Source: a virus. Taken from it: DNA of 64,000 bases. The translations under genes were made by a program, and so were the position numbers. Below the pieces are notes generated by a model, which saw nothing but the letters and a program-made list of their open reading frames with translations, was not told where the DNA came from and ran no database searches. Positions 3,599-55,376 of the stretch are shown here, piece after piece (the stretch's first letter is position 1; every line of letters begins with the position of its first letter). The stretch spans positions 4,084-68,083 of the IMG/VR virus record IMGVR_UViG_3300047289_000053. One strand, 5' to 3'.

Positions 3599-3667
3599 TT
3601 TATTAATCACATCATCAGCAGTTATACTCCTCTGGCATTCAAATTGTCGAGGAGTATTTTTGTTTAC
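3572..3667 (-). pseudogene. Orphaned original 3' end of the glycosyltransferase gene
   Basis: Minus strand reads VNKNTPRQFECQRSITADDVINKLVLLKNFQ*, colinear with the GT C-terminus VHKGSDRMFECQKTITAEMVIEEIKKII*. Confidence 0.85.
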
Positions 3668-4401
3668 AGCAATCCCATATCAATTGCTTCTTGCTTTGTT
3701 ATAAAACCAAGTTCTGTTAAATACTTCTTTATATACTTTCTTTCTATACCAGTAATCGTTTCCGCTTGTCTTAAAGATTCGTATACATAAAACTCATTAT
3801 TAATATATCTGTATAACTCTATTCTTTTAGGACTAGTAATTCTTAATTTGTCTCTTTCTTTATCAGTAAGTTTTCTGTTTTTAGCTTTAGCAGATAATTT
3901 CAACTTATGCTCATTTGATAATTTTTTGCCATACCAGTAATTCTTATCTCCTTTTAAACTTTTAGATATTTTTAATTTCACATCATCTGAAACTTTTTTA
4001 CCTAATGCTTTTTGGGATAATATATTTTTTGTTTCTTCTGAATGATGTTTACCATAAAAAGAATTCAATGGGCCAATTGAGCTTTCTGACATCTTCTGTT
4101 TTCTTTCTTGGGTATATATCAAGTTTTTTATATCCTCTCCCCCATCAGTTAGATTAACTAAGGTACCATTATTCAAATCTTTTCTTCCATATAACTTTAT
4201 GAATTCCATTTCTTTTTCACACGCTTCTTCACGACTTAAATCATCAAATAATATATCTACTCTGTAATCAGATATATTAATAACATTATGCCAATAGTTG
4301 TTTCTATTCTTTTTACAATATGCTCTCCTAGTATTATTTCCAATACCAATATAAAACACCTTGTTAGTATCTAATCTTATATGCCTATATACTATTGCCA
4401 T
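3664..4401 (-). CDS. GIY-YIG-type free-standing homing endonuclease with NUMOD3-like repeats
   Basis: VYRH...FYIGIG...R N-terminus; repeated N.FYGKHHSEETK and N.WYGKKLS.EHK motifs. Confidence 0.85.
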   Translation of the reverse strand: MAIVYRHIRLDTNKVFYIGIGNNTRRAYCKKNRNNYWHNVINISDYRVDILFDDLSREEACEKEMEFIKLYGRKDLNNGTLVNLTDGGEDIKNLIYTQERKQKMSESSIGPLNSFYGKHHSEETKNILSQKALGKKVSDDVKLKISKSLKGDKNYWYGKKLSNEHKLKLSAKAKNRKLTDKERDKLRITSPKRIELYRYINNEFYVYESLRQAETITGIERKYIKKYLTELGFITKQEAIDMGLL

Positions 4402-6458
4402 TATATTATCTTTTTTATTTCTTCAATAACCATTTCAGCTGTTATTGTTTTTTGACATTCAAACATTCGATCAGAACCTTTATGTACGGGACACCAAGAC
4501 CAGTCCCCCTTATCGAATTTGAAGTTTTTATTGTTCCAGCATCCGGTACATACATTTTTATTGTATGGTCTAATACATTCAAATTCGTGACCTATCTCAC
4601 TAAATCCAGCTATCATTACAACCTTCTTTCCTAACCCCCAAGCGGTCCACGCAATTCCCGATCCCAAAGCAATAGTAAACTCACTGTGGTCGATTAACGC
4701 CATTGTGTCGTAGATATTGTGATTAATAATCTGCTCACAGTTATCGAACGGATTCTCTTCAAGCGATACGTTAATTACTTTGTAGCCTTTGCTAACTAAG
4801 TAGTTAATCACTCCTTGCCACCCCTCCTTTGTCCAGAACTTACATCCTGATGTAGAGTTGGTAGCAATGGTCACATACTTACTCTCAGGTAATGCTTTCT
4901 TAGATGCATACATTAATCTTGGGCTAATTTCTTTGAAGTCAAGGCCGAGAATATTGGTTGCTGCCTCTTGTAGCTTAATTGTATTTGGTAATACTGGTTC
5001 CTTGTTCGTATCGTAGAACCAGCCAATGTTATACTGAGCATAGATATTAGGAACTACTGTGCCAGGTTCTACTAACTCTATCTCAGGAATGTCCAGTATT
5101 TTATTTAAAAAAGTGGACATAATTACCTTGCATCTGTGTTTCTTTTGAAACTCTACAGCGTATGGTGCCCAAGCAATTGTGTCGCCTAATGACTTACTAG
5201 ATAGAGCAATATACACACGCTTGCCTTCTAGGTCAAGTACGTTATCGTGAATTAGTTTACCATCCATGTAGACTTTACTGTGCCACTTAGTATAGTATTG
5301 TCTGTTTAGTTTGACCCAGCTATTTGATCCGATAGTATTCTCGTAGACTAGTTTATCGCCATCAAAGTATTGTACCTTAAAGTCTGCTTTCAGTCCTGAC
5401 TTAATTTCTAGGTATGGCTGGACAACAAAGTGTTGGATGATGGTTACATCTTGTTCTTGTTTGTCTAGTGTCATTACTTTGTTGTAGAAGTCAATTTGCT
5501 TCTGAGTGAATATCTCAGTCGTATTATCTATAGGTATTATATAATTAGAATATACTGACCTTAAATCAGAGTCAATAGGTTGAATATATTTATCAAACAT
5601 TGACCCATACTGTGGTAAGTTTCTAGCTACAATAGGTAATCCATATCCTATTGCTTCCCGTAATACCAAAGGGTTGCATTCCCATGTAGAATTAAACATG
5701 AAAATATCTGCCAACAACATGAATCGGTGTGCATCATTTCTCTCTCCCCACACTTTAACATTAGTTGGCAAATCTTTCATTAATGGCTCCCAGTAATGCT
5801 TGAAATTTATAGCTTGGTTTCCGATAAAATGAAAGTCCATTTCAGGATACTTTCTAGCTATCTCAATCCCTTCAGCTTGATTTTTACCAGGAGTCCAAAG
5901 ACCTACACTAACTACATTTTCTTTACGAAAATCAAACCCTTGTCTATGTATATCCATACAAGTATCAAGGTCATCTGTCTTGTCATCAATTGGAAACTCA
6001 ATCACCTCTTTGTAAGATGGCGATGAAGCGAATGTATCCAAGTGATATGGCGTGCAGAAATAGTACGCATCAGGATGAAATATCTTTTCTTTGTCGTGGT
6101 TAAACGACACGTCGTGACACGTCTCCACAATTCGGTAACTTCGTTCTTCACGATATAACTCAGAAATCATATCACGATTAAACCTTTCGGCTGGCTCGTG
6201 AATGTGAACAATGTCGGGATTGAATTTTGCGATGATGTTGAATAACTCCATCTTGTCTTCGTGCAGAGTATGAAACGGGACTAGTTCCTTAATTTTATTT
6301 CTTTGCACGACATAGTCTAAGCTATGGCATTGATACTCTACTACCTCAATCTCAAATGTCTTATAAAGAGTTTGAACACTCTTTAAAACAAAACCGGGCA
6401 TCCCCCCAGTCGAACAGTGAGCAAGTAGGAATAATATTTTTACTTTTTCTCCTTCCAT
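4401..6458 (-). CDS. Two-domain glycosyltransferase: N-terminal GT4-like plus C-terminal autotransporter heptosyltransferase (AAH/TibC-like, GT9 fold)
   Basis: GT4-like KNQ..G..ADIF.FNS.WE.NPLVLREA.G.GLP; SKSLGDTIAW, IALGSGIAW and CTGCWN..CP..FEC cysteine cluster. Confidence 0.85.
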   Translation of the reverse strand: MEGEKVKILFLLAHCSTGGMPGFVLKSVQTLYKTFEIEVVEYQCHSLDYVVQRNKIKELVPFHTLHEDKMELFNIIAKFNPDIVHIHEPAERFNRDMISELYREERSYRIVETCHDVSFNHDKEKIFHPDAYYFCTPYHLDTFASSPSYKEVIEFPIDDKTDDLDTCMDIHRQGFDFRKENVVSVGLWTPGKNQAEGIEIARKYPEMDFHFIGNQAINFKHYWEPLMKDLPTNVKVWGERNDAHRFMLLADIFMFNSTWECNPLVLREAIGYGLPIVARNLPQYGSMFDKYIQPIDSDLRSVYSNYIIPIDNTTEIFTQKQIDFYNKVMTLDKQEQDVTIIQHFVVQPYLEIKSGLKADFKVQYFDGDKLVYENTIGSNSWVKLNRQYYTKWHSKVYMDGKLIHDNVLDLEGKRVYIALSSKSLGDTIAWAPYAVEFQKKHRCKVIMSTFLNKILDIPEIELVEPGTVVPNIYAQYNIGWFYDTNKEPVLPNTIKLQEAATNILGLDFKEISPRLMYASKKALPESKYVTIATNSTSGCKFWTKEGWQGVINYLVSKGYKVINVSLEENPFDNCEQIINHNIYDTMALIDHSEFTIALGSGIAWTAWGLGKKVVMIAGFSEIGHEFECIRPYNKNVCTGCWNNKNFKFDKGDWSWCPVHKGSDRMFECQKTITAEMVIEEIKKII

Positions 6459-6922
6459 ACGAATCCACCAGCGTGGTTGTAAATATTTTTAATATTAAAA
6501 TGAATACTCTTTCTGTCTACTTTGGTCGCTTTATAAGCATCTAATACAGACCTATGTTCGGCAATAAATTCACCTTCCTTAGTATATTGTATAACAGGTG
6601 TTTTTCTGCAATTTATAAGGCCCGTTCTATGTGCATGATATTTATTTTCGCTATCTGTAACCCACTCTAGGTTTTCAATATTATTGTTTAAAGGATTGCC
6701 ATCTATATGATTTATCTGCGGCTTATTATAAGTATTAGGAATAAATGCTTGAGCGATTAATCTATGAACAAGTTGGTGTTTCTTCTTGTTGTCTTTCCAC
6801 AATTCAACCATAAGCCTACCTTGTTTGATAGTTTGTTTAATTTTGTGCTTTGTATTGATGTTTGTAACAATCCCTTGCAAGTCGATTGTATAATTTGGAT
6901 ACGCTTCTATTAATTTTTCCAT
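6440..6922 (-). CDS. HNH homing endonuclease with C-terminal NUMOD1-like motif
   Basis: VHRLIAQAFIPN..KPQINHIDGNPLNNNIENLEWVT..EN; C-terminal VIQY..G.FI..AGGFVW. Confidence 0.9.
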   Translation of the reverse strand: MEKLIEAYPNYTIDLQGIVTNINTKHKIKQTIKQGRLMVELWKDNKKKHQLVHRLIAQAFIPNTYNKPQINHIDGNPLNNNIENLEWVTDSENKYHAHRTGLINCRKTPVIQYTKEGEFIAEHRSVLDAYKATKVDRKSIHFNIKNIYNHAGGFVWKEKK

Positions 6923-7479: not shown

Positions 7480-8034
7480 ATGAAGTCCCCATTTTACTTT
7501 ATAGTGCAACCCCGTGATGGCAAGAGATATGACAACACGAGGGGAGAGCTCATTATTTCTACATCGAAAGAAGACCACCTTGCCACTATGCGTGAGGCTG
7601 TTGTTATCTCTACGCCTATTGGATACGAGGGTCCCGTTGAACCAGGTGATACGGTCATTGTGCATCACAATACTTTTAGGTTGTATTATGATATGCGTGG
7701 TAGAGAGAAGTCTGCTTGGAATTACTTCCGAGAGGACTTATACTTTATTGACGATCCATATGCATATAAGAAGCCTGGTGCTGATTGGATTGGTATTGGT
7801 CGCTACGTGTTCATCTCTCCTGTGGAGAATGACTACACAGGCATACTTACTGCAGACGCAGAGAAGCCTCTTGTAGGCACGATAAAGTATCCAAACGAAG
7901 AAGTACTAGCACTAGGATTAAAAGAGGGCGACACGGTCACGTTTGAGCCTGAGAGCGAGTATCCATTCTATATTGACGGTCAGAAAGTATACCGTATGTA
8001 TACTAAGAATCTAACAATTAAATTAGATGAATAG
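7480..8034 (+). CDS. GroES-like (co-chaperonin fold) protein, probably two tandem domains
   Basis: Two similar halves: FIVQP..LIIS..AVVIS.P..VEPGDTVIV and VFISP..GIL..GTIKY..LKEGDTVTF. Confidence 0.6.
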   Translation: MKSPFYFIVQPRDGKRYDNTRGELIISTSKEDHLATMREAVVISTPIGYEGPVEPGDTVIVHHNTFRLYYDMRGREKSAWNYFREDLYFIDDPYAYKKPGADWIGIGRYVFISPVENDYTGILTADAEKPLVGTIKYPNEEVLALGLKEGDTVTFEPESEYPFYIDGQKVYRMYTKNLTIKLDE

Positions 8035-8308
8035 AATAACAGAACTTAAGAAAAGAATTATTGAGTCAGGGTATAAGGCTGTTGAAGAATTAATTAAAGT
8101 TGCTGAAGAGAAAATCATTACCCATATGGATGACGACTTGTCTGCAGACAAACTTAAAAATGCCGCTGCAAGCAAGAAACTGGCAATACTTGATGCCTTT
8201 GAGATTCTTAAAAGAGTCGAGGAGGAGAATAATATTATTGAGGGAGTAGTTGGAAACTCTGCACCTACCAACCGTGGGTTTGCAGAACAAAGAGCAAAAG
8301 GTAAATGA
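8027..8308 (+). CDS. Putative terminase small subunit
   Basis: Helical 93-aa protein just upstream of TerL; call based on position. Confidence 0.5.
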   Translation: MNRITELKKRIIESGYKAVEELIKVAEEKIITHMDDDLSADKLKNAAASKKLAILDAFEILKRVEEENNIIEGVVGNSAPTNRGFAEQRAKGK

Positions 8309-8309
8309 T

Positions 8310-8828
8310 ATGGAAACTTGGAAAGATATAATTGGATACGAAGGTTTATACCAAGTGTCAAATATGGGAAATGTGAAGAGTTTGTCAAGAATTATTGACA
8401 GAGGTAGTTTACCAAGCAGACTTCAGAAAGAGAAATTAATGAAGAAGACTGTTAATAAGCAAGGATACCATGTTGTAAACTTGAGTAAAGATAAAAGACA
8501 GAAGTTACATAGTGTTCACTTTTTAGTTGCTTCTTGTTTTTTAGGAGATAGAAATGGGTTAGATACCAATCATATAGATAGAAATAAATCTAATAACTGC
8601 TTGTCAAATCTAGAGTATGTTTCTAGAAGAGAAAATACTTGTCACGGAAAATCAAGAAAACATTCCTTCCCAGGTATAACATTCAGGAGCAGAATAAAAA
8701 AATGGACAGCTAACCCTGTTTTCAATGGCAAAATTATTGAGTTAGGTTCGTTTGATAATCAAGACGATGCAATATCTTGCATTAAAAACTTTTACAAAGA
8801 AAATAACATTGTAAACAAATACGCATGA
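8310..8828 (+). CDS. NUMOD4-HNH homing endonuclease
   Basis: ETWKDIIGYEGLYQVSNMGNVKS (NUMOD4) and VHFLVA..NHIDRNKSNN..NLEYV..EN (HNH); likely start ATG 8310. Confidence 0.9.
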   Translation: METWKDIIGYEGLYQVSNMGNVKSLSRIIDRGSLPSRLQKEKLMKKTVNKQGYHVVNLSKDKRQKLHSVHFLVASCFLGDRNGLDTNHIDRNKSNNCLSNLEYVSRRENTCHGKSRKHSFPGITFRSRIKKWTANPVFNGKIIELGSFDNQDDAISCIKNFYKENNIVNKYA

Positions 8829-13504: not shown

Positions 13505-14611
13505 ATGGATAATATTCAAGTAAAACTTGTAGACTTTGAAGAGAAGTCAGTGCAAGAAATCGAGCAACAGTTGCTTGAGGAGCACGAAGAAAAGACCGCT
13601 CCAATTGAGGAGATGGCTGCAGAATTAAGTGCAACTACCGAGGAAACTCAGGAAGTTATTGAAAGTCAGCCACAGTTTGGCGACAACGACGTTCTTTCAT
13701 ATTTAAAAACAAAGTTCAACAAGGAGGTAAACTCTTTGGATGAATTATTTACAGAACAACCACAGTCTCAACAGGAATTACTTCCTGAAGATGTAAATGC
13801 TTTCTTAAAATTCAAGAAAGAGACAGGACGTGGTTTAGAAGATTTCTATCGTGTTAACCAAGATTTTTCTAAGGTTAATCCAGAAAGACTTCTAGCTGAC
13901 TACATGCGTGAAACTAATCCTGATTTTGATGATGAGGATATCGCATTCGAATACGAATCAAAGTTTGGATACGATGAGGAGATGGATGACGAGAAAGAAA
14001 TTAAACGCAAGAAGTTAGCACTTAAAAAAGAACTTGGCAAGGCATCAAAGTACTTTGAAGAACAAAAGGAAAAATATAAAGCTCCCCTTGAGTCGAGGAT
14101 GGATGCTACTATTCCTGCTGAGGACAGAGAGGCTTTGGAATCTTACAAGCAATACATCAGCCAATCTGCTGCTATGCAGCAAGAGCAGGCTAAAAAGTCG
14201 GAGTACTTTATGAATAAGACAAACGAATTATTCTCTAATGAATTCAAAGGTTTTGATTTCAAAGTTGGAGATAAGGAAGTATCTTATAAACCAGGAACTC
14301 CAGAGCAGCTGAAAGCTCAACAAACAGATATTGCCAAATTCTTTAGCAACTTTGTTAACGAAGATGGATTTATTAAGGATGCTAAACAGTATCATAAAAC
14401 AATTGCTGCGGCAATGAACCCTGATGCAATGGCTAAGTTCTTTTATGACTTAGGCAAATCGGATGCAATCGATGACAGTGCACGTCAAAGTAAAAATATT
14501 GACATGAGCGTTAGAAATGCTCCACAAAACATTGAAAAAGGCGGGTTTAAAGTTACAGCGTTGGATAATGATCATGGTAGTGGACTTAGGATTAAATCAT
14601 TTAAAAACTAA
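13505..14611 (+). CDS. Putative capsid scaffolding protein
   Basis: Very acidic, helical, between portal and MCP. Confidence 0.6.
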   Translation: MDNIQVKLVDFEEKSVQEIEQQLLEEHEEKTAPIEEMAAELSATTEETQEVIESQPQFGDNDVLSYLKTKFNKEVNSLDELFTEQPQSQQELLPEDVNAFLKFKKETGRGLEDFYRVNQDFSKVNPERLLADYMRETNPDFDDEDIAFEYESKFGYDEEMDDEKEIKRKKLALKKELGKASKYFEEQKEKYKAPLESRMDATIPAEDREALESYKQYISQSAAMQQEQAKKSEYFMNKTNELFSNEFKGFDFKVGDKEVSYKPGTPEQLKAQQTDIAKFFSNFVNEDGFIKDAKQYHKTIAAAMNPDAMAKFFYDLGKSDAIDDSARQSKNIDMSVRNAPQNIEKGGFKVTALDNDHGSGLRIKSFKN

Positions 14612-14627
14612 AAACTAAAAAAAAACA

Positions 14628-16043
14628 ATGGCTGGATCAGTTCAAGCGTCCCCGGGTTATCAATTACAACCCTCGGCAGTAAAGGCAACATTGCCTACAA
14701 ACTACATTACTAACTTCAATTTCTTAAACCAGTATCTTCCTGATACTTACGAATCAGAATTTGAGCGTTATGGTAATCGTTCTATTGCATCTTTCTTACG
14801 TATGGTAGGTGCAGAATTACCTTCTAACTCTGACTTAATCAAATGGGCAGAGCAAGGTCGTTTACACACTAAGTATGTTAACTGTACTTCAGCTGCTGCT
14901 GTTGGAGCAGATACAGCTACTTGGACTGTTAACGATGCAAACGTAATCGTTAACTTCCGTGTTAACCAAACTGTATTCTTATCTGCTAACGCTGGTTCAG
15001 CTTCTGACAAAGCGGTTATCACTGCAGTAGATACAGCTGCTAACACTTTCACAGTTGCTTACTATGCTGGTGCTGGACAATCAATCGCAATCAATACAGC
15101 TTCAACTGCATTCGTTTACGGTTCTGAATTCACTAAGGGTTCATTAGGAATGGATGGTTCTCTTGAGTCTCAAGATATTTTCTTCGAGAACAAGCCAATC
15201 ATCATCAAAGACAAGTACACAGTATCAGGTTCTGATATGGCTCAAATCGGTTGGGTTGAAGTAACTTCTGAGAACGGTGCTACTGGTTACTTATGGTACA
15301 TCAAGTCTGAGCACGAAACTCGTTTACGTTTCGAAGACTACTTAGAGATGTCAATGGTTGAAGGTGTTCCTGCACAAGCTAACTCTGGTGCTTTACCTTA
15401 CTTAACTGTTGCAGCTTCTCAAGTACAACCTGGTGCTGCTGGTACTCAAGGTTTATTCAATGCAGTTGAGACTCGTGGTAACGTATGGAAAGGTGGTAAC
15501 CCAACTACTTTATCAGACTTCGATTCAATCATCCAACGTCTTGACAAGCAAGGAGCTATCCAAGAGAACGTGTTATTCGTTAACCGTAAATTCTCTTTCG
15601 ATATCAACGATATGTTAGCTGCACAAAACTCTTACGGAGCAGGTGGTACTTCATATGGTTTATTCGACAACAACGAGACTATGGCGTTAAACTTAGGTTT
15701 CACAGGCTTTAAGCGTGGATACGATTTCTACAAGACTGACTGGAAATACTTAAACGATGCAACTACTCGTGGTGGAATCGTAGGTGGAGCTATCAACGGT
15801 ATCTTGGTACCTGCAGGTTCTACTAACGTATACGATCAAATCTTAGGAAAGAATGCAAAACGTCCGTTCTTACACGTTCGTTACCGTGCTTCTGAAACTG
15901 AAGATCGTCGTTACAAAACTTGGATCACTGGTTCTGCTGGTGGTGCTCAAACAAGTTCATTAGATGCAATGGAGGTTAACTTCTTATCTGAGCGTGCTTT
16001 ATGTACTCTTGGTGCGAACAACTTCTTCATCTTCGAGAACTAG
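14628..16043 (+). CDS. Major capsid protein
   Basis: 471 aa after the scaffold gene; strongly biased codons (TTC/AAC/GGT/CGT); followed by a strong terminator. Confidence 0.8.
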   Translation: MAGSVQASPGYQLQPSAVKATLPTNYITNFNFLNQYLPDTYESEFERYGNRSIASFLRMVGAELPSNSDLIKWAEQGRLHTKYVNCTSAAAVGADTATWTVNDANVIVNFRVNQTVFLSANAGSASDKAVITAVDTAANTFTVAYYAGAGQSIAINTASTAFVYGSEFTKGSLGMDGSLESQDIFFENKPIIIKDKYTVSGSDMAQIGWVEVTSENGATGYLWYIKSEHETRLRFEDYLEMSMVEGVPAQANSGALPYLTVAASQVQPGAAGTQGLFNAVETRGNVWKGGNPTTLSDFDSIIQRLDKQGAIQENVLFVNRKFSFDINDMLAAQNSYGAGGTSYGLFDNNETMALNLGFTGFKRGYDFYKTDWKYLNDATTRGGIVGGAINGILVPAGSTNVYDQILGKNAKRPFLHVRYRASETEDRRYKTWITGSAGGAQTSSLDAMEVNFLSERALCTLGANNFFIFEN

Positions 16044-24610: not shown

Positions 24611-26080
24611 ATGGCAGAATTTGCAGGATATGTAGGCAATCAAGTACCTCCAATAGATTGGGGTAAAATTGGTACGGACTTATACGATAAAATAAATAAG
24701 GTCAACGACGAGAGAAAGGCTGAGAAGCAAAAAATCGACGATGATTATAATGAAGCATTTTCTAAAATAGGGGAGTACGAACAAACCACGGATCAATCTC
24801 TAAACGAGATGATTTATAAAGGTGTTGATGAAGTTCGCAATGCTATGAAAACTCAATACGATTTATTAAAAAAAGGAGCCATTACAATGGCAGACTATAA
24901 GTTGTATAAGAACACTGCAATGACCGATTGGTCTACATTGAATAAAGCAGTTAAGGGTTATGGAAATACTATTGCTGGAGTTCAAAAGATAATTACAGAA
25001 GGTAAAATGTCTGGACTTGGTCAGTACAATGCATTGAGTTATGCTAAACTTAGCAACCTAAAAGATGCTAAGATTATGGTTAATCCTGAAACAGGTAGAC
25101 TATATCGTGCAAACATTGATCCCAAAACAGGAACTATAGCTTCTGACTCAGACGTTTATAGCCCATCAGCAATGCTTAACCCAGGGAACTTGGTTGACTT
25201 GAAGGTTGATTTAAATGACGGTGTTACTAAATTCTTAAAAACCATAGCAGATTATGGCGGTGTCAAGAATTTAGGAGGTGGAAGAATTGAGGTAACAGAA
25301 GATGCTCGCAAAAACCCTGCGTATCAAAAAGCGTTGGAGGCTCAAGTTAATTCATTTACAGTTACACCACGCTCTACAACTAGTATTCTTACTGACTATG
25401 TTGGAGACTATCAATTTTTTGAGTCTGAAGCACAAAAAAATGAGTTAATAGGAAAAGGTGTTAAGAAAGAAAAATTAATCAAGGTGGAGAGAAAGAATGG
25501 TGTATACGAGCCTATTCCAACTGCTGACCAAGAGACTGCCGCAAAAGAGTATGTTAGAAGTCAAATTGAAGTAGGTGTTGGTCGCAAGGAAACACAAACG
25601 CAAGGATTTGCTCCTCAACAACCAAGAGAAGTAAAAAAGCCAAGTGCTACTGAAATTAAAGAAGATAAACGTATTCAAACTATTACTACTAAAGCGGAAA
25701 CAGCTAATAAGATTTGGGCTGCTAGACAAAATAGTCCTCAATGGCCTTTGCTTAGATCTGCTGCATCTGACCGTGGTTTAGATTCTCCTAAAGTTACTTT
25801 CGTTAGAGAAAGAGATTCCGCAGGAAATTTACTTCCTCCAATTATTAGGATTACTGGTAACGAGATGACTGTAGATGCAGGAGGTAGAAAAAAGAAAGGT
25901 GCATTGGTTGTTAGAGACTTAAGGAGTCCTGAAGATGTATACACTTATATTAGTACTAAGCAAGATCCATTAGCCGCATCTTCTGATTATATTGAAGGTA
26001 ATGAGTATTTTGAAGCAAATAGAGGTCAATCTGCAGCACCTGCAACAAGAACAAGAGTTTCAGCTAAAGGATGGCAATAG
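24611..26080 (+). CDS. Internal virion/ejection protein 2
   Basis: 489 aa, second of three consecutive genes of increasing size ending the late operon. Confidence 0.55.
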   Translation: MAEFAGYVGNQVPPIDWGKIGTDLYDKINKVNDERKAEKQKIDDDYNEAFSKIGEYEQTTDQSLNEMIYKGVDEVRNAMKTQYDLLKKGAITMADYKLYKNTAMTDWSTLNKAVKGYGNTIAGVQKIITEGKMSGLGQYNALSYAKLSNLKDAKIMVNPETGRLYRANIDPKTGTIASDSDVYSPSAMLNPGNLVDLKVDLNDGVTKFLKTIADYGGVKNLGGGRIEVTEDARKNPAYQKALEAQVNSFTVTPRSTTSILTDYVGDYQFFESEAQKNELIGKGVKKEKLIKVERKNGVYEPIPTADQETAAKEYVRSQIEVGVGRKETQTQGFAPQQPREVKKPSATEIKEDKRIQTITTKAETANKIWAARQNSPQWPLLRSAASDRGLDSPKVTFVRERDSAGNLLPPIIRITGNEMTVDAGGRKKKGALVVRDLRSPEDVYTYISTKQDPLAASSDYIEGNEYFEANRGQSAAPATRTRVSAKGWQ

Positions 26081-26096
26081 TTAATATAAATATATA

Positions 26097-29000
26097 ATGG
26101 CAAAACAAAGATTAGTAAAAAAAGGTAGCCAATATGGTATCTTAGACGAAGCGTCTAACACAGTATTACCTATTTCAGAGAACATGAAACTTGTTCAAAA
26201 GCAGGGGCAATATGGTGTTCTTGATGGTGATTCTGTTATCCCTATTGATAACTTTTCTGAAACCATTACTGATTCAGACTTAGATATATTAAAAAAAAAA
26301 AATTCTACGGAATCCGTTGGTCAACCAACTCCAAAACCTACTTCATCGGTATCTCCAAAGATTCAAGGGAGTGGACTTGTGGCTTCTCCTGCAAAAGCAG
26401 GTAAGGAAGAAGTTGGAATGATTGATGACATTTGGAATTCATTCAAAGGAGCTGGTGCTAAAGCATTAGCTTCTATTGCTTCTGTTCCTCAGTTTGCACA
26501 AAATGCTGCTATAGATATCATGTCTAGTGTAACTGGACGTTCTAGTGATTTCAATAAATTACCATCAAATGTTAAGAAGCAAGTAAGAGATGCAATAGCA
26601 GGATCTCTTAGTGCAGCTACACCTACAGGTCGCTTTGCACAAGCATCTCAAGAAGCTACAGATTATCTTAATAAAAAATCTGAAGACATCTACAAGAAGA
26701 CTCGTCAAGAGGAGATTGATGTCGTAGATGAATTAGCTAAGTTTGGAGAAAACCCAAATGCGGAATCTATTAAAAAGGTTCTTTACCAAGGATTAAAAAC
26801 CACATTCGAATCTGCTCCTTATATGGCCATTGGTATGGCAAGTTTACCAGCTTTAGCAATCACTTCTGCTGCAGGTAAAAGAGAAGAGGATATTTCTAAA
26901 GAAGGAGATGTAGGTATTGGTAATCTATTAAATGCTGGTATATATGGTGCAGCTGAGGCTGTATTTGAAGGCACAACTAATAAGATTTTAAGAAAGGCTG
27001 CTAATTCCGCAGTCGGTAATCCTAAGGCTGCAAAAGCTGTTGCTGAAGGTTTTGTTAAATCTGTATTGAAAGATTTTGGTCAAGAAGCCACTTCTGAAGG
27101 AGCAACTACTGCTATTCAAGATTTATCAGACAGAATAACAAAAGGAGAAAACATACAAGATATAAATTATTATAAGTTAGCAAAAAATGTAGCTAACAGT
27201 GCTATACTCGGGGGTATATCAGGTGGAGGCATATCTCTTACTGCATCAACAGCAGGTGCCGCACGTAAATATGTGGCATCTAAAATAATGCCTAAAAATC
27301 AAATAGAGAAAATTAATAACAATACTAAAACAATTCAAAGTCTAAATCTTGAGCACGGAGAAGATGTTGATCCACGTGTAAACGAAATTGTTAATAAAAA
27401 AATAGATGAATTGGTAGCTGAGAATGAAGCTATCATTGCAGAAAATGAAAAGATTGCTGAGAATTTATCTGCTGATCAAATCAAACAAGTATTTGATATT
27501 GACGATAAATTAGAAGAAAACTATAATAGTGCAAAGTCTATTATTGACGATGCGGCTATGGATGATAATGCAAAGAAGTTATTATTAGATGATTTACTAA
27601 AACAACAAAATAACCTTAAACAAGAAAAAGATGCCATTCAAAAGCAAGCAACAAGTGAAATACCTGTACAGCCAGAAACCGGAATTAGCGGAGAAGTGGC
27701 GAAAGGAGAACCCCAAGCAGAACCTCAAGTCCCTACCGAAGAAGTTAAAGTCGAAGAAGTAACAACTCCTTCTGAAACAATTGAAGTATTTCATGGTGGA
27801 GATTTGCCTTCATTAGAAGAAGGTAGACCTTTGTACGTATCAGAAGATGCTAGTCAAGCGAATGAGTATGCAAAGATGTCTGGTGGAGAAGTATCAAAAT
27901 TCTTTTTAGACAAAAATAAAATAGCTAGCGAACAAGATGCTTTCGATATAATGGAAGAATTGGGGTTAGACTCATTTGGAAACTTCTTTGAACTTATTGA
28001 TCCTAGATTTGATGAGGCATTTTCTGAAGAAGACATAAAAAGAGTTTTTGACACATTAAAAGAAAGAGGATTTGAGGCGGTAAAATATACTGATATTGAT
28101 CAGAAAGATTTAAAGTCAGGTATTGAAAATATACTAGTTCTTGACGCCTCTAAATCACTTAAAACAGAACCAACTCCTACCACAGAAGTAAAAGAAGAAG
28201 TAATAGTTAGACCTGAACAAAAGGTAGAACAAGCTACTGCAGTTAAAAAAGGCATTGATGCTGTCAATAAGGCTGTAGAGCGTGGTAGACCTTTAAAGAA
28301 AGCAGTCGAAGGTGGTATTGCATTTATGCAAAAAACAATTGCCTATGAGCAAGCGGATGACGTTACTCGTGAGCAAATGCTTCGTGACATCAATAAGAAG
28401 TTTGGTGTAAAAGAAAAGAAGGCTCCATCCGTTAAAAAAGTATTAGGTAAAAAACCTGATATGATTTTAATTGATGAAATGGAATCAATAAAAAAACAAC
28501 TTAAAATAGAAGCAAAAGCTGCTAAGAAAGCATCTGATATAGCTACAAAAGAAGGTAAACAGATACTAAAGTCTACGGTTAAAGATATCAAACAAACAAG
28601 AAAGGATGTAATCAGTAAGTTAAAATCAATGATTACACGTGGTTCGTTAAGTAAAGCACAACAAAAATCATTATTAAATGCTTTAGAAAAAACAAATATA
28701 TTTAATCCTGTAATGCGTGAACGTATGTTTGAACGTATGCAGAAGATGTTTGAGCGTGCTGATTACAAGGATCGTATTAAAGAAGCAACTACTTTTAGAA
28801 ATAGAATTAAAAAGTTAGCTAAATCAGAAACACTACAGGCTTCGGTGTCTAATATGGCAAAAGACTTTTCAAAAGTTATACCAGACCTTACTGATGTAGA
28901 TAAGTATTTAGAGAAAGCAAGAGACGTTTATAATGCAATTAAAAACCCTTTAAGGGTAGCTGTTGTTATTGATGATGTTAATAAGTTTTCTGAAACTGAA

Positions 29001-31721
29001 TTAAAAAAACAAGAAGAGAAACTTAAAAATACTTTACTAGACCAATATGATTATTTGGTTGAAGATGGTCTTATTGATGCATCAATGAGTTTATCTGAAA
29101 TCCAAAAATATGTAATGGATGTAGAGAAAGGTCTTAAGCCTGATACAGAAGCTAATGAAGCCAAAATAAAAAATAACTTAACAGAGTTATTTGATTCTAT
29201 GAAAGAATCAGTTGATTCTATTTTAGAAGATGGATACAATCCTGTAACAACTGAAGAAGTTGAATTAGATGAATATACTAGACAATTGCTAAGTAATTAT
29301 TCTTCTATGGATATTGATAGAATGTCTATATCGGAGGCTTATAGAGCAACAGAGGCACTAGAAAATTACTTAGTAAATGGTATTGTTGATAACATGGAGT
29401 CAATGTACCGTGTTTACGAAGGAGCATTAAAGAATGCTAAATTAGCAAGTCAAGGAGTTGTAGCACAAAATTTAAAAAGATTTGGAATTTTAGGTAGATC
29501 TAATTTATACGCTAGATCCTGGGCTGCTAATATTTCACCATTAAAATCTGTTATTGATTTAATGTTTAGATCAAGAGAGATGGGTGCTAAATTCTTAAAA
29601 GAATCTGGACTTAGAGATATTGCAAATTCTTCTAGTAGAGCTAAAACAGAAACTCAAAATATCGATAAAGCATATGATGAGAAGTTTAGCAAAACAAAAC
29701 CTAATGGACAACCATTCTATTCGGCAGAAAATACCTACGAAAGAGGTATGTATGCTCATCTAAGAAGAACATTTGAAGGCACTACAGATGAAATAAACAA
29801 CGAGTTTAATAGACGCAAAAAACAAATTGTTGATACTATTGACAAGTTGATGAAATCTGGTGATGATAAATTAATTAATAGAGCAAAGGTATACCAAAAG
29901 GTATTTGATAAATTCAAAGATGCAAAAAACATCCAAGAGGTTGAAGACTCTATTGATGTAACTAATGCTAGTGCTGTAAAATGGTGGAATGCTATATTTG
30001 ATAAATACTATCCTGAAGTTAAAAAGATAGCGTCTTCTGTATATAATACTGTACTAGAGGATGATATAAATTATTCTCCTGATAATTATGAGAAGATATT
30101 AGAAGATAGTGTACCTGATGTGAATGAGGTTTCTACATATAGAATGGCATTCAACTTTTTGAATTCAGAGAAGTCGGGTACATTAATGAAGAATAATAGA
30201 CTTCAAGAATTGCCTAAGAATAGAGCAATGAATTTTGATTTTGATTTTAATAATTCATCTGCTTTAGGTAAAATGTTAGTAGATGTTAGGACAGCTCCTT
30301 ATGTACAACAATACAGAGGATTTTCTAACGCACCTAGTTTTGATGAGATATTCAAAGATCCTAAAGACAGAGATGTTATTAAGGAGAAAATGAATTGGTA
30401 TGTTAACGAGGTTCGTTCTAAAAATTATTCTACTGCTAATGTTAGAGCAAAAGATGCTGAAAAAATATTTAGAGAAATATCCCGTATTGGTACTGGTCGT
30501 GCATTAGGTTCTGCTTTATCAATATTTAAGCAATTCTCTACAGCAATGATAAACACTTCTATTAATTTAGCGAATAATCCTAAAGCATTGATCCAAGGAC
30601 TTTCAACTATTAAAGATAAAAGTGCAATGAAATGGCTTGAGAATTCAGGTTATGCTATTGCTAATAGAGGATTAGAATCTCAAACAGCAATTGAATCAGC
30701 AGATAGGATATTGAACCAAACAAATCCAGAAGCGGTAAACAAACTTGTTGGATCAACTCAAAAAATACTTAATACAATTGAGAAAGTAAACCAATTCTAT
30801 TTAAAATCATTCTTACAGAATGGTGACGTATTTGGTGCTCGTGCTTCCTGGATGGCTTATTACTTAAATAAGTTGGATAGTATGGGTATTAATACTTCTA
30901 ATATTGATTGGTCTAAACATAAATTGGTTACGGAAGCTGCTGATTATGCTCAAGATAAGGTTGATCTTCAGCAAAACGTATCAGAATCGGCAATGTTGGG
31001 TAAACTATTAAATAGTAAAAATCCATACATTAATATGGGTAAATCGCTATTTATTCCTTTTAGTAGTTTTGTTTTTAATGCTAAAGATAAAATAGCTACA
31101 GACTTAACTATTTTATCATCCAATGCTAATGATAAAGAAAAATTAGATGCAATAAAATCTTTATCAGGTACAGCCGTTGAAATGATGATATTTGAAGTTA
31201 TGGGTAGCTCAATTACTTTGGGAATTGAATTATTAGCTAACTCTTTACTTGGATATGATACTGATGAGGATGAGTTGAGAGAAAAGTTAGATAAAGGATT
31301 ACAGAAATCTACAACTAGAATGTTTACTGATTCGTTCTCTCCAATGCCAAACTGGGGTGATAAGATAATGGTATCATTAGCTAATAAAGCACTTAATTTC
31401 TTGCAAAAAAATATAGATGAAGAGGACCGTAAATTATTTTATGCTTATGAAGCTAAAGGTGATTTCAATAATATAATGGGGTTAATTGGAGGAATTCCTG
31501 AAATTGCACTAAAGCCTTTAGTTAATTTTGGATTCACATTAGATAAGATTTTATCTGATACCTATGTGGATGATTTTGGGAATGAAGTTCAATTCTCTGA
31601 TGAAGATAAAGAAAAACTAGTTGGAATACTAGCCGCTCAACTAGCCGCACCATTCTTACCTACAGAGTACGGAAGAACATTAGACAAAATGGAACAGAAA
31701 ATAGAAAAAGAAGCTAAATAA
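26097..31721 (+). CDS. Large internal virion/ejection protein with an inserted ADP-ribosyltransferase-like (polyvalent-type) domain
   Basis: 1874 aa, mostly helical, with a Gly/Ala-rich membrane-like segment; VFHG..LYVSED...A.EYA..GFEAV domain at about 27770-28150. Confidence 0.65.
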   Translation: MAKQRLVKKGSQYGILDEASNTVLPISENMKLVQKQGQYGVLDGDSVIPIDNFSETITDSDLDILKKKNSTESVGQPTPKPTSSVSPKIQGSGLVASPAKAGKEEVGMIDDIWNSFKGAGAKALASIASVPQFAQNAAIDIMSSVTGRSSDFNKLPSNVKKQVRDAIAGSLSAATPTGRFAQASQEATDYLNKKSEDIYKKTRQEEIDVVDELAKFGENPNAESIKKVLYQGLKTTFESAPYMAIGMASLPALAITSAAGKREEDISKEGDVGIGNLLNAGIYGAAEAVFEGTTNKILRKAANSAVGNPKAAKAVAEGFVKSVLKDFGQEATSEGATTAIQDLSDRITKGENIQDINYYKLAKNVANSAILGGISGGGISLTASTAGAARKYVASKIMPKNQIEKINNNTKTIQSLNLEHGEDVDPRVNEIVNKKIDELVAENEAIIAENEKIAENLSADQIKQVFDIDDKLEENYNSAKSIIDDAAMDDNAKKLLLDDLLKQQNNLKQEKDAIQKQATSEIPVQPETGISGEVAKGEPQAEPQVPTEEVKVEEVTTPSETIEVFHGGDLPSLEEGRPLYVSEDASQANEYAKMSGGEVSKFFLDKNKIASEQDAFDIMEELGLDSFGNFFELIDPRFDEAFSEEDIKRVFDTLKERGFEAVKYTDIDQKDLKSGIENILVLDASKSLKTEPTPTTEVKEEVIVRPEQKVEQATAVKKGIDAVNKAVERGRPLKKAVEGGIAFMQKTIAYEQADDVTREQMLRDINKKFGVKEKKAPSVKKVLGKKPDMILIDEMESIKKQLKIEAKAAKKASDIATKEGKQILKSTVKDIKQTRKDVISKLKSMITRGSLSKAQQKSLLNALEKTNIFNPVMRERMFERMQKMFERADYKDRIKEATTFRNRIKKLAKSETLQASVSNMAKDFSKVIPDLTDVDKYLEKARDVYNAIKNPLRVAVVIDDVNKFSETELKKQEEKLKNTLLDQYDYLVEDGLIDASMSLSEIQKYVMDVEKGLKPDTEANEAKIKNNLTELFDSMKESVDSILEDGYNPVTTEEVELDEYTRQLLSNYSSMDIDRMSISEAYRATEALENYLVNGIVDNMESMYRVYEGALKNAKLASQGVVAQNLKRFGILGRSNLYARSWAANISPLKSVIDLMFRSREMGAKFLKESGLRDIANSSSRAKTETQNIDKAYDEKFSKTKPNGQPFYSAENTYERGMYAHLRRTFEGTTDEINNEFNRRKKQIVDTIDKLMKSGDDKLINRAKVYQKVFDKFKDAKNIQEVEDSIDVTNASAVKWWNAIFDKYYPEVKKIASSVYNTVLEDDINYSPDNYEKILEDSVPDVNEVSTYRMAFNFLNSEKSGTLMKNNRLQELPKNRAMNFDFDFNNSSALGKMLVDVRTAPYVQQYRGFSNAPSFDEIFKDPKDRDVIKEKMNWYVNEVRSKNYSTANVRAKDAEKIFREISRIGTGRALGSALSIFKQFSTAMINTSINLANNPKALIQGLSTIKDKSAMKWLENSGYAIANRGLESQTAIESADRILNQTNPEAVNKLVGSTQKILNTIEKVNQFYLKSFLQNGDVFGARASWMAYYLNKLDSMGINTSNIDWSKHKLVTEAADYAQDKVDLQQNVSESAMLGKLLNSKNPYINMGKSLFIPFSSFVFNAKDKIATDLTILSSNANDKEKLDAIKSLSGTAVEMMIFEVMGSSITLGIELLANSLLGYDTDEDELREKLDKGLQKSTTRMFTDSFSPMPNWGDKIMVSLANKALNFLQKNIDEEDRKLFYAYEAKGDFNNIMGLIGGIPEIALKPLVNFGFTLDKILSDTYVDDFGNEVQFSDEDKEKLVGILAAQLAAPFLPTEYGRTLDKMEQKIEKEAK
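26291..26404 (+). other. A12 slippery run followed by a 33-codon -1 frame extension
   Basis: TTA AAA AAA AAA AAT; the -1 frame reads FYGIRWSTNSKTYFIGISKDSREWTCGFSCKSR* (stop 26402-26404). Confidence 0.5.
27631..27762 (+). CDS. Nested (+1 frame) small basic protein MPFKSKQQVKYLYSQKPELAEKWRKENPKQNLKSLPKKLKSKK
   Basis: ATG at 27631 after an A-rich leader, TAA at 27760. Resembles small stand-alone phage proteins beginning MPFKS..Q.RYLY...PE.A.RW. Confidence 0.7.
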   Translation: MPFKSKQQVKYLYSQKPELAEKWRKENPKQNLKSLPKKLKSKK

Positions 31722-39308: not shown

Positions 39309-40163
39309 TTATAGTCCGCAGAAACCTGAGTCGCATTCGTTAAAGTCTGACTCAAATAACTCCACTTGTTTAAATGATTCTTTAATTTTATTATAAGATG
39401 TACCCTTGATAAATCTAGCCGAGTCAGTCTCCTGATTAGCAAACCAATCAAACTTATTTGGTTGCATCTCAGACATCAATTTAAGTAGTGCAGGATTACG
39501 ATGGAAACATCCAACACAGTTGTTCATATAAGCGAACCTAACTGGTTTATCTTTCCAATACTCGTGCACCTGCTCTCGTAAGATATTCTGCTCGATCAAG
39601 GGAAATCTTGGTGTGCGGTATGGGATAGAGTGCCACTTGTGTCTTCCACGCTCGTTAGTTGACTTGATAACTCTAAAGTTCTCAATGCCATCTACGCAAC
39701 GCTTCAACATATTGTTGGCACGTCTAGTCTCATTAGCCCTAAACCCAATTCTCATTTCAACAGGTAGATCCGTGTTGGCTCTACACCATTCAAAGATTGG
39801 GTTAACTTTCATATGAACCGTGCAGAATCTTTGCATCACATTAGGTAAGTATTTATAATACTCCCCATTGTCTTTGCGATTCTTGTTAACGATTGAGTCA
39901 AAAGTTGGGCCGGTTATCCAAGTAATCTTTCTACCTAAATACTGCTCTAAATCTAGCATCGTGTAGATAATTGCATCCTCTTCTAGCGTACCAATAAAAT
40001 CAGTCTGAAGTCTGTCCTCTACAATCTTTCTGATTGCATCATCCTTAAACTTACACGACTCATCTGTGGTTCTAACCAAAGAGAACAAATCTACGTCAGC
40101 TGGGAAATGAGCCGCCATATACGATGATGTTTTGCCTCCACTTAAAGAGTTGACTGTTGTCAT
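39309..40163 (-). CDS. PAPS-reductase/PP-loop family protein with Cys clusters
   Basis: SLSGGKTS PP-loop, RFCT..MK, IGFRA.E..R, FPL, NCVGCF and C-terminal C.SGFCG. Confidence 0.8.
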   Translation of the reverse strand: MTTVNSLSGGKTSSYMAAHFPADVDLFSLVRTTDESCKFKDDAIRKIVEDRLQTDFIGTLEEDAIIYTMLDLEQYLGRKITWITGPTFDSIVNKNRKDNGEYYKYLPNVMQRFCTVHMKVNPIFEWCRANTDLPVEMRIGFRANETRRANNMLKRCVDGIENFRVIKSTNERGRHKWHSIPYRTPRFPLIEQNILREQVHEYWKDKPVRFAYMNNCVGCFHRNPALLKLMSEMQPNKFDWFANQETDSARFIKGTSYNKIKESFKQVELFESDFNECDSGFCGL

Positions 40164-53828: not shown

Positions 53829-55376
53829 ATGATAGTAAAAGACATCGTCTTCGGAGATGAAGGCAGAAAGAAATTAATTAAGGGTGTTAATACCATAGCA
53901 GATGCTGTGGGTTCAACATTAGGGGCTCGTGGTCGCACGGTGCTCATTGAGTCGGAGCAACACATTGGTGGCATTACAGTAACCAAGGATGGTGTGACGG
54001 TCGCTAAGTCAATTAACTTAATGGACCCAGCTGAGAACTTGGCGGTCATGATCATGCGAGAAGCATCTGAGAAGACGGCTAACTCTGCAGGTGATGGGAC
54101 GACGACCAGTATGGTGCTGGCACAAGGCATCATCCATGCGGCAATGGACGAGATTAAGCCAGATGACAACATTACCCAGGTGCTACGTGACATTCAGGCT
54201 GCAGCATTACGTGTTGCAGAAGAGTTGACGGCTATGTCGACTGAGATCACATCAGACAAGTTGGTGGACGTGGCGACTATCTCGGCAAATGGCGATGCGG
54301 AGATTGGCAAGATTATCGCTGATGCGTACAATCAAGTTGGCTTATCAGGCGTGGTGACCGTTGGAGCATCTGAGACATCGGACACATATGCTGAGGTGGT
54401 GAGTGGTATGAAGATAGACAGAGGCTTTGCGAGCAAGTACTTTGTAACAGACCACAAGAAGCAAGAGGCTGTGCTAGAGAAGCCATATATTTTGGTGACT
54501 GACCAGCCCATTACAAACCTTAACGACATCTTGCCAATCTTAGAGTTCATCCACCAAGGCAGACATTCATTGCTCATTATTGGGGAGCTAGATGAGAACT
54601 CACTAAATTCACTAAACGTGAACAAGATTAAGTTGGGCTTAAAGGTGAGCACTATTATTCCTCCATCATTTGGCTACAAGCGTCATCAGATCATGCAGGA
54701 CATCGCTATTGCGACAGGGGCTAAGTACTTTTCTGAGCAGACGGGTGACAACTTAATGATGGTCACTATTGACGACTGCGGACAAGCAGGCAAGGTGGTG
54801 AGCTCACGGTTCAATACTATTATCTTCGATGCTATCGGAGCAGGGGAGGAGAGAGTGCAAGAGTTGCAAGAGCAGATAGAGGTGGAGACGCAGGCGATCG
54901 AGAAAGAGTTCTTAAAAGAACGCATTGCTAATCTAGGCGGTGGCGTGGCTATCATTAAGGTGGGTGCTAACTCAGACATTGAGCAGAAGGAGAAGAAGGA
55001 CCGGGTGGACGATGCGGTGTGTGCGGTACGTGCAGCACTAGAAGAGGGTATCCTTCCAGGTGGAGGCGTGGCGTTGCAAGACATTGCTATTAAGATGGAG
55101 TCAAGTAATAAGGGGGATGACATATTAAGAGAGGCGATGGTGACACCCATGATCAAAATACTTAAGAATGCTGGCATAAGCATAGACTCTATTGATAGAG
55201 ACAAGATATACAAAGAAGGCATCGGCATTAATGTGGTGACGGGTGCATACTGCCACATGATGGACATGGGGATCATTGACCCGACCAAGGTGACTAAAGA
55301 AGCTCTTAAGAATGCCGTGTCAGTGGCAACTACATTGCTATCCACAGAGACGGTCATCACTAATATTCGTGCATAA
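53829..55376 (+). CDS. groEL: Phage chaperonin GroEL
   Basis: TLG.RGR.V, TKDGVTVAK, AGDGTTT, GM.IDRG, GANS..E.KEKKDRVDDA, PGGGVAL and GIIDP.KV. Confidence 0.97.
   Translation: MIVKDIVFGDEGRKKLIKGVNTIADAVGSTLGARGRTVLIESEQHIGGITVTKDGVTVAKSINLMDPAENLAVMIMREASEKTANSAGDGTTTSMVLAQGIIHAAMDEIKPDDNITQVLRDIQAAALRVAEELTAMSTEITSDKLVDVATISANGDAEIGKIIADAYNQVGLSGVVTVGASETSDTYAEVVSGMKIDRGFASKYFVTDHKKQEAVLEKPYILVTDQPITNLNDILPILEFIHQGRHSLLIIGELDENSLNSLNVNKIKLGLKVSTIIPPSFGYKRHQIMQDIAIATGAKYFSEQTGDNLMMVTIDDCGQAGKVVSSRFNTIIFDAIGAGEERVQELQEQIEVETQAIEKEFLKERIANLGGGVAIIKVGANSDIEQKEKKDRVDDAVCAVRAALEEGILPGGGVALQDIAIKMESSNKGDDILREAMVTPMIKILKNAGISIDSIDRDKIYKEGIGINVVTGAYCHMMDMGIIDPTKVTKEALKNAVSVATTLLSTETVITNIRA

Follow-up and report, generated by a model that had tools for sequence, protein, structure and literature searches.

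A conserved poly-A run as a candidate slip site in the giant gene of a podophage clade

Slippage on an A run gives dnaX its tau and gamma forms, by a -1 frameshift at A_AAA_AAG, the classic -1 site, in Escherichia coli and by slippage at A9 in Thermus thermophilus. Here we describe a run of 12 adenines (A12) near the 5' end of a giant gene of 1874 codons in an uncultured lake phage. The window is the whole 64,000-nt stretch that we analysed (positions 4,084 to 68,083 of IMG/VR virus record IMGVR_UViG_3300047289_000053); it makes up most of this 68-kb record, which is rated complete, and its GC content is 37%. From comparison with relatives, we consider it likely that the A12 is a conserved programmed slip site, which would yield a short protein (the N-terminal module of the giant protein plus a trans-frame tail) beside the giant protein.

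Several described systems bear on such a site. As reported in PMC4256274, tssM1 of Citrobacter rodentium and tssM of Yersinia pseudotuberculosis carry A11 in a large structural gene, where RNA polymerase adds A's, and tssM is made as two length variants with one N-terminus, of which both forms and their ratio are required. For potyviruses, P3N-PIPO is reported to use a short -1 open reading frame (ORF) embedded in a very long one; lacking its own start, this ORF is accessed when the polymerase inserts one A (PMC5009743). The same source reports the lambda G/GT -1 frameshift, which lies in the tail-assembly-chaperone gene and governs the ratio of two proteins with one N-terminus (PMC5009743). 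Koutmou et al. (2015) report that A11 or longer in an ORF lowers full-length output and brings out-of-frame termination (PMC4363877). We found no description of the present site in open-access texts. The kind of slip site is already known; the case itself appears to be new, with good comparative support.

The A12 run and the two predicted products

The features of the locus are as follows.

26097..31721, + strand: giant ORF in the 0 frame, 1874 aa, which closes the virion-structural module
26097..26290, + strand: N-terminal module (N-module), aa 1-64, part of both predicted products, with two copies of a motif of about 25 aa
26291-26302, + strand: A12 homopolymer, the proposed slip site, TT[A] AAA AAA AAA [AA]T
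26301..26402, + strand: S/T/P/G linker in the 0 frame, aa 69-102, weakly conserved as protein, with the tail overprinted on it
26303..26404, + strand: trans-frame (-1) tail ORF FYGIRWSTNSKTYFIGISKDSREWTCGFSCKSR, stop TAA at 26402-26404
26403..27596, + strand: start of the conserved body of the giant protein (KEEVGMIDDIWNSFKGAG...), which begins at the -1 stop

The A12 spans codons 65-69 of the giant ORF (L65, K66-K68 and N69). Past it, the 0 frame reads NSTESVGQPTPKPTSSVSPKIQGSGLVASPAKAG, and the -1 frame reads KKKKFYGIRWSTNSKTYFIGISKDSREWTCGFSCKSR, that is (K)FYGIRWSTNSKTYFIGISKDSREWTCGFSCKSR up to the TAA at 26402-26404. An earlier note, made from the letters of the window, had placed the run about 65 codons into the gene and had described an S/P/T/G-rich 0 frame and this -1 reading; re-reading the sequence confirmed all of it.

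We propose that standard decoding would give the N-module, the S/T/P linker and the body (1874 aa), and that a one-base slip into the -1 frame would give a short protein made of the N-module, lysines and an aromatic/Gly tail (102 aa in the window and 57-103 aa in relatives). An RNA polymerase that stutters would insert one extra A in part of the transcripts; a ribosome that slips would reach the same frame on the unaltered message, and either mechanism would divert part of the expression from the giant protein. That the slip occurs, which machine makes it and in what ratio the products arise, we infer from sequence.

The A12 is the longest homopolymer of the window, and the runner-up is an A9 at 14617-14625. 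This A9 occupies most of the 16-nt spacer between the ORF at 13505..14611 and a 471-aa virion structural gene that starts at 14628. At least one A12 arose in 18 of 100 dinucleotide shuffles of the window (mean 0.35); a lone A12 in 64 kb is within chance, and the evidence is its conservation. There are only six KKK triplets in the window, of which one is encoded by A9 (0.9 expected), too few for a test of avoidance. AAA makes up 54-63% of the Lys codons. The chance level of the run and the AAA share also fit a reading without any second product, in which three lysines happen to be written as AAA in an AT-rich genome and the -1 opening is a by-product of the Ser/Thr/Pro linker; we judge this highly improbable, for the reasons given with the coding tests below.

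Conservation of the run and of the -1 frame

We sought relatives in IMG/VR and metagenome contigs with the N-terminal 500 aa and a body alignment as queries, which gave 9, 10 and 9 loci, many of them from the same contigs. L031 and L032 came from two extra scans that started from the most divergent bodies, and a pattern scan permitting 10-15 A gave 7 IMG/VR contigs, one of them new, which all carry A12. Among cultured phages, tblastn found Maribacter phage Panino (27.7% identity over 240 aa, in a syntenic gene of 1829 aa); with the window body or the Panino body as query, tblastn against cultured phages found nothing beyond Panino, and megablast of 25000-28000 against them gave zero matches. 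The set comprises 24 sequences (the window, L002-L010, L017, L021-L029, L031, L032, Panino as L030, and L038), of which L028 is a duplicate of L007 and L038 is known from the pattern match alone. Body identity drops to 46% (L029) and 27.7% (Panino). The site is hosted by a podophage clade whose sole cultured relative infects Maribacter (Flavobacteriaceae).

We found the run in all 24 sequences, as A12 in 13, A10 in nine, A11 in one and A9 in one (Panino). None of the 24 has an AAG that interrupts it, so the poly-A that the earlier note proposed to look for in homologs is kept throughout. Every non-Nanopore (Illumina-type) sequence has at least 10 A, and in group 1 the run is A12 in 13/13 assemblies. 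Across the set, the first A of the run falls on codon position 3, 1 or 2, and 2-4 Lys are encoded. Hence, the conserved object is the homopolymer and not the lysines. A DNA alignment of 10 lineages has a single invariant block, which is T plus 9 A. The homopolymer thus equals or exceeds the approximate length of the RNA:DNA hybrid (9 or more) and is kept in relatives, as is characteristic of a transcriptional slippage site.

Eight unrelated types of N-module occur among the relatives, the window's own included, and all end at the run. The N-module behaves as an exchangeable cassette (window 26097-26290; also in L006, L017, L024, L029, L031, L032 and L030), and the run may mark a recombination border. 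In L029 (2246-2350) and L031 (about 1237-1333), the N-modules cannot be aligned; identity is 90-93% in the upstream gene and 94% in the DNA past the run. In seven of the eight types (group 2 being the other), a motif of 10-30 aa occurs twice within the module; KPKFNPxxPF and KYPEY are examples.

In every lineage, 28-46 codons of the -1 frame are open past the run; they encode a conserved aromatic/Gly peptide of about 30-45 aa. Two motifs make up its core, [FY][FY]G[IF][KR]x and, 6-7 residues further on, [FY][IF]G[IF]S; a third motif, W.xG[FI], is frequent, and the Panino tail reads KFWGIRGRKWFIGFFRPEGGGWFFGISRKSD. The -1 stop directly precedes a conserved motif of the body, (E)E[IV]GxIDD[IL]WN. 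With one A added, the predicted product has 102 aa in 11/12 group-1 sequences (103 aa in L023), 57-58 aa in group 2, 67 aa in L017, 97 aa in L024 and 84 aa in L029. The earlier note had the tail echo the two repeats upstream of the run, which found no support at the level of sequence, although a structural model places beta strands in both parts: BLASTP of the tail against the N-module gave no alignment at E<=100, and the same tail lies behind unrelated N-modules.

In the window, the -1 frame has no start codon upstream of the run and is open there for merely 6 codons. Likewise, a start codon in this frame upstream of the run is absent in 9/10 lineages, where the frame is open for 0-15 codons. 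Hence, the tail should be reachable only by a shift. The +1 frame meets a stop 2-5 codons past the run in group 2 and L029, and by this comparison it is not conserved. In group 1, it is open for 36-55 codons (window 26303-26420, ILRNPLVNQLQNLL...).

For the coding tests, we redrew the 0-frame codons synonymously from phage codon usage. The fraction of draws that kept the -1 frame open as far as observed was 0.024-0.196 per lineage. Similarity across lineages, taken as summed local BLOSUM62 scores over 10 pairs among five module types, was 406 for the -1 frame versus 289 for the 0 frame. Synonymous redraws scored 211 ± 21 with a maximum of 297, and 406 was reached in 0/1000; shuffles of the tail residues scored 206 ± 15. 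The 0-frame score of 289 barely exceeds its own shuffle null of 241 ± 16 and was reached in 8/1000.

We also counted synonymous and non-synonymous changes. Among the 11 sequences of group 1, the N-module has 32/14 in frame 0 and 2/44 in frame -1, and the overlap has 7/15 in frame 0 and 7/14 in frame -1. The first 25 nt past the run hold two singleton changes only, both silent in frame -1 and non-synonymous in frame 0. Five other pairs give 9/30 in frame 0 and 20/20 in frame -1, figures that are softened, like those of group 1, by a lack of independence (L010 is in three of the five pairs, and the group-1 sequences are related). L009 and L026 differ by two changes, both silent in frame -1 and non-synonymous in frame 0. 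Between L029 and L031, no stretch of DNA is better conserved than the overlap (94/100 versus 81-84% for the body). Judged from these comparisons, both frames of the overlap are constrained, the -1 frame at least as strongly as the 0 frame. The earlier note had asked whether homologs keep an open and conserved -1 frame, and they do; the frame is open, its length is kept and it is more conserved than the 0 frame.

These results bear on the reading in which the -1 opening is a by-product. In its favour, the TCN/ACN codons of a Ser/Thr-rich frame bias the -1 frame toward hydrophobics (F/I/L/V) and inflate its protein-like look, and the resampling that controls for this bias rests on one codon table. 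Against it, none of the 1000 synonymous resamples reached the observed -1 conservation, and the rare codons ACG, TCG and TCC occur where the tail requires Gly or Ile. Tail residues also stay constant where 0-frame residues vary; for example, the Gly of the motif is constant while the 0 frame at that spot reads SV, TE, SG or LE. Finally, the run survives eight module types despite its shifting phase and number of lysines.

Run length and the slipping machine

The earlier note had allowed that the run length might be an assembly error. It is not; A12 recurs in 13 assemblies, among them two RNA-library contigs, each from a different study, which attest the run length and not transcription. In DNA run X3, contigs end at 26285 and restart at 26313 with adapter-like loose ends, and we did not count them as evidence.

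We searched a collection of 5.8 billion proteins with the -1 ORF of the window and found P0002 (102 aa, Logan), which is identical in every residue to the product predicted for a group-1 relative with one A added. When we built a profile from twelve tails and ran it against 1.84 billion representatives, the sole hits were P0003 (102 aa, ENA), which exactly matches a predicted product with one A added, and P0004 (67 aa, JGI/IMG), which is the predicted L017-type product. The three come from three sources, one contig each. The tail profile found no other proteins among the 1.84 billion representatives that use the tail peptide in frame.

The three public gene calls fit a run that is longer by one A, and they could come from heritable phase variation, in which replication slippage gives A13 genomes that make the short protein only, as a switch at the DNA level. 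Homopolymer switches have been described in phage virion genes. We regard this as very unlikely at this locus, since the A12 of group 1 is constant (13/13 assemblies, including the 7/7 IMG/VR contigs of the pattern scan), the Illumina-type assemblies are all in frame for the giant protein, and an 'off' genome would lose the 1874-aa virion protein that all relatives keep. With the three gene calls as the sole exceptions, we rejected a phase-variable contingency locus.

Panino has A9, and A10 would restore the frame of its body. According to the published account, its genome comes from MinION Flongle reads only, put together with Canu (PMC11590407). L032, an Illumina-type sequence that is 50% identical to Panino, has A10 and is in frame. 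Because of the Nanopore-only assembly and the in-frame A10 of L032, the A9 of Panino is most likely a homopolymer undercall; it may also be genuine, with a frame that depends on slippage. In the Panino record PP540027.1 (5729-5993), the giant coding sequence (CDS) begins at an internal GTG (locus 5911) and is named 'tRNA methyltransferase', and a 62-aa minus-strand CDS is called across the run; these oddities are likely side effects of the A9/A10 undercall.

As the slipping machine, we lean toward RNA polymerase, for four reasons. First, the at least 10 A that are kept exceed both the 7-nt ribosomal site and the 9-bp RNA:DNA hybrid. Second, single-base insertions are reported to dominate A/T runs in the transcriptomes of E. 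coli and Buchnera and to rise exponentially with length, and in Buchnera 151/157 insertions lie in runs versus 16/57 deletions (PMC5574713); an insertion would lead into the conserved -1 frame and a deletion into the unconserved +1 frame. Third, we found no common fold in the 70 nt downstream of the run in six lineages (z -1.54 to +0.55). Fourth, A10, which 9/24 sequences have, slides ribosomes little: in E. coli extracts, sliding is reported as robust at A11 and little at A9 and A10 (PMC4363877). The window has a hairpin on the upstream side (z -1.88), which we did not see in L006.

The same two products could come from the ribosome on faithful transcripts, by a -1 frameshift on A_AAA_AAA/G or by poly-A sliding. 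Any run of at least 10 A holds a phased A_AAA_AAN heptamer, and L029 has A_AAA_AAG. The A12 of the window lies in the range (A11 or longer) at which ribosomes of E. coli systems are reported to slide and lose frame (PMC4363877), and the resulting peptide would be identical to that of a message with one A added. On the other hand, a ribosomal site would explain neither the maintenance of at least 10 A where 7 suffice nor the A10 runs, and a downstream stimulatory hairpin or pseudoknot is lacking in the six lineages; sliding also leaves the frame both ways, while conservation is restricted to the -1 frame. We therefore hold a purely ribosomal slip to be rather unlikely, well behind a slip by RNA polymerase. 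Both machines may contribute, and a ribosomal share is plausible, especially at A12.

Several observations tell against a programmed slip with a functional short product. The L029-L031 pair favours the 0 frame (synonymous/non-synonymous 5/4 versus 3/6). In Panino, the tail frame is open for 41 codons upstream, with ATG and TTG codons present, and the tail may be initiated separately there; its A9 also puts the N-module out of frame with both body and tail. P0002-P0004 may have come from DNA variants, RNA or assembly noise. Both RNA-library contigs that bridge the run without a gap show plain A12, although contigs lose rare variants. The slippage thresholds come from E. coli and Buchnera and not from Bacteroidota. 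Lastly, the tail matches no family or fold in Pfam or in Foldseek searches against PDB and BFVD.

Genome setting, possible role and comparison with known systems

We modelled the 102-aa product with AlphaFold on a 20-row alignment, which is shallow and has many partial rows, and obtained a mean pLDDT of 80.5. In this model, the N-module consists of beta hairpins, and a short helix leads on to tail strands at 69-76, 80-89 and 92-101 (pLDDT 65-79); the tail is predicted to be a three-stranded beta meander. A single-sequence fold of P0002 gave a tail pLDDT below 50. Foldseek with the 102-aa model gave best E values of 0.11 (PDB) and 0.023 (BFVD) with low TM-scores, and Pfam and PHROGs gave nothing above cut-off for the short product and the N-modules. 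The N-module bears a likeness to WG-type beta-hairpin repeats, for which Pfam gave no confirmation; the scan at E<=1 returned only a sub-threshold Rv2993c-like_N, and we set the WG assignment aside.

The giant protein had no Pfam family above cut-off, none in PHROGs, and no match below E 0.029 in a sequence search of the PDB. Its Atlas look-alike clusters (score 0.90) include LPD3, PBECR3 and MuF_C in a minority of members. Pfam at E<=0.01 gave no match to these families and did not confirm a polyvalent virion protein of this kind, for which the Atlas clusters are the sole lead. The structural module runs from the terminase (8825) and the portal (11035) through several genes whose PHROGs are labelled 'virion structural protein'. 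Because the giant gene ends this module and Panino is podoviral (PMC11590407), the position suggests an internal or ejected virion protein.

The short form would have the N-module of the giant protein and a tail conserved across the clade; for this reason, we guess that it acts with the long form, through the common N-module, in virion assembly or cargo loading, much like the TssM length variants (PMC4256274) or lambda G/GT (PMC5009743). A more specific and rather doubtful idea is that the run is both the slip site and the fixed right border of swapped N-modules, and that the short form is a small adaptor, made in a set ratio with the giant protein, which loads or positions it.

Elsewhere in the window, one homing-endonuclease-like ORF and two HNH-endonuclease ORFs lie around the terminase (3664-4401, - strand; 6440-6922, - strand; 8250-8828, + strand). 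The phage has GroEL-like (53829-55376, + strand) and GroES-like (7480-8034, + strand) chaperonin genes, both ribonucleotide reductase subunits and a PAPS-reductase-like gene at 39309-40163.

The predicted short product is missed by gene callers, and the run derails annotation, as in the Panino record. If the slip is real, the largest virion gene also yields a small protein that has escaped annotation in a whole freshwater and marine clade of Flavobacteriia-type podophages, and a DNA-phage case is added in which a long, conserved trans-frame peptide is reached via poly-A. Recoding in Bacteroidota is little studied, and Panino on Maribacter halichondriae is a tractable system to separate polymerase from ribosomal slippage there. 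If the ratio and the adaptor role also hold, the assembly factors of short-tailed phages would gain a new, recoding-dependent class in the short form.

Among the known systems, poly-A sliding as described in PMC4363877 is a cost to avoid, whereas the out-of-frame product here is conserved. With lambda G/GT, the locus shares conserved recoding in a phage virion gene and a common N-terminus. However, in long-tailed phages G/GT precedes the tape-measure gene, and its product is lengthened by the shift; here the relative Panino is a podophage (PMC11590407), the giant gene carries the site at its 5' end and the product would be shortened. We rejected a G/GT-type chaperone frameshift on these grounds, namely a site inside the giant gene and a shift that truncates.

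Like tssM1, the locus has an A run inside a large structural gene, a proposed addition of A by the polymerase and a common N-terminus. The DNA of tssM1 is in frame for the short form, and slippage brings back the long one; here, by contrast, the DNA frame gives the long form. The trans-frame part also differs, since here it is a conserved peptide of 30-45 aa over a linker, in a phage and known from sequence alone. Like P3N-PIPO, the predicted product is an N-terminal part plus a trans-frame tail; P3N-PIPO belongs to a plant RNA virus with an RNA-dependent RNA polymerase and a GA6 site, in contrast to a DNA phage, a DNA-dependent RNA polymerase of host or phage and A10-12 here. As in dnaX, there would be a long and a truncated form with one N-terminus and a slip on an A run; however, the gamma tail is one or a few residues, whereas the length and conservation of the tail here imply that it has its own function. 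By these comparisons, we place the architecture of the locus closest to P3N-PIPO and tssM1, and its predicted outcome closest to dnaX tau/gamma.

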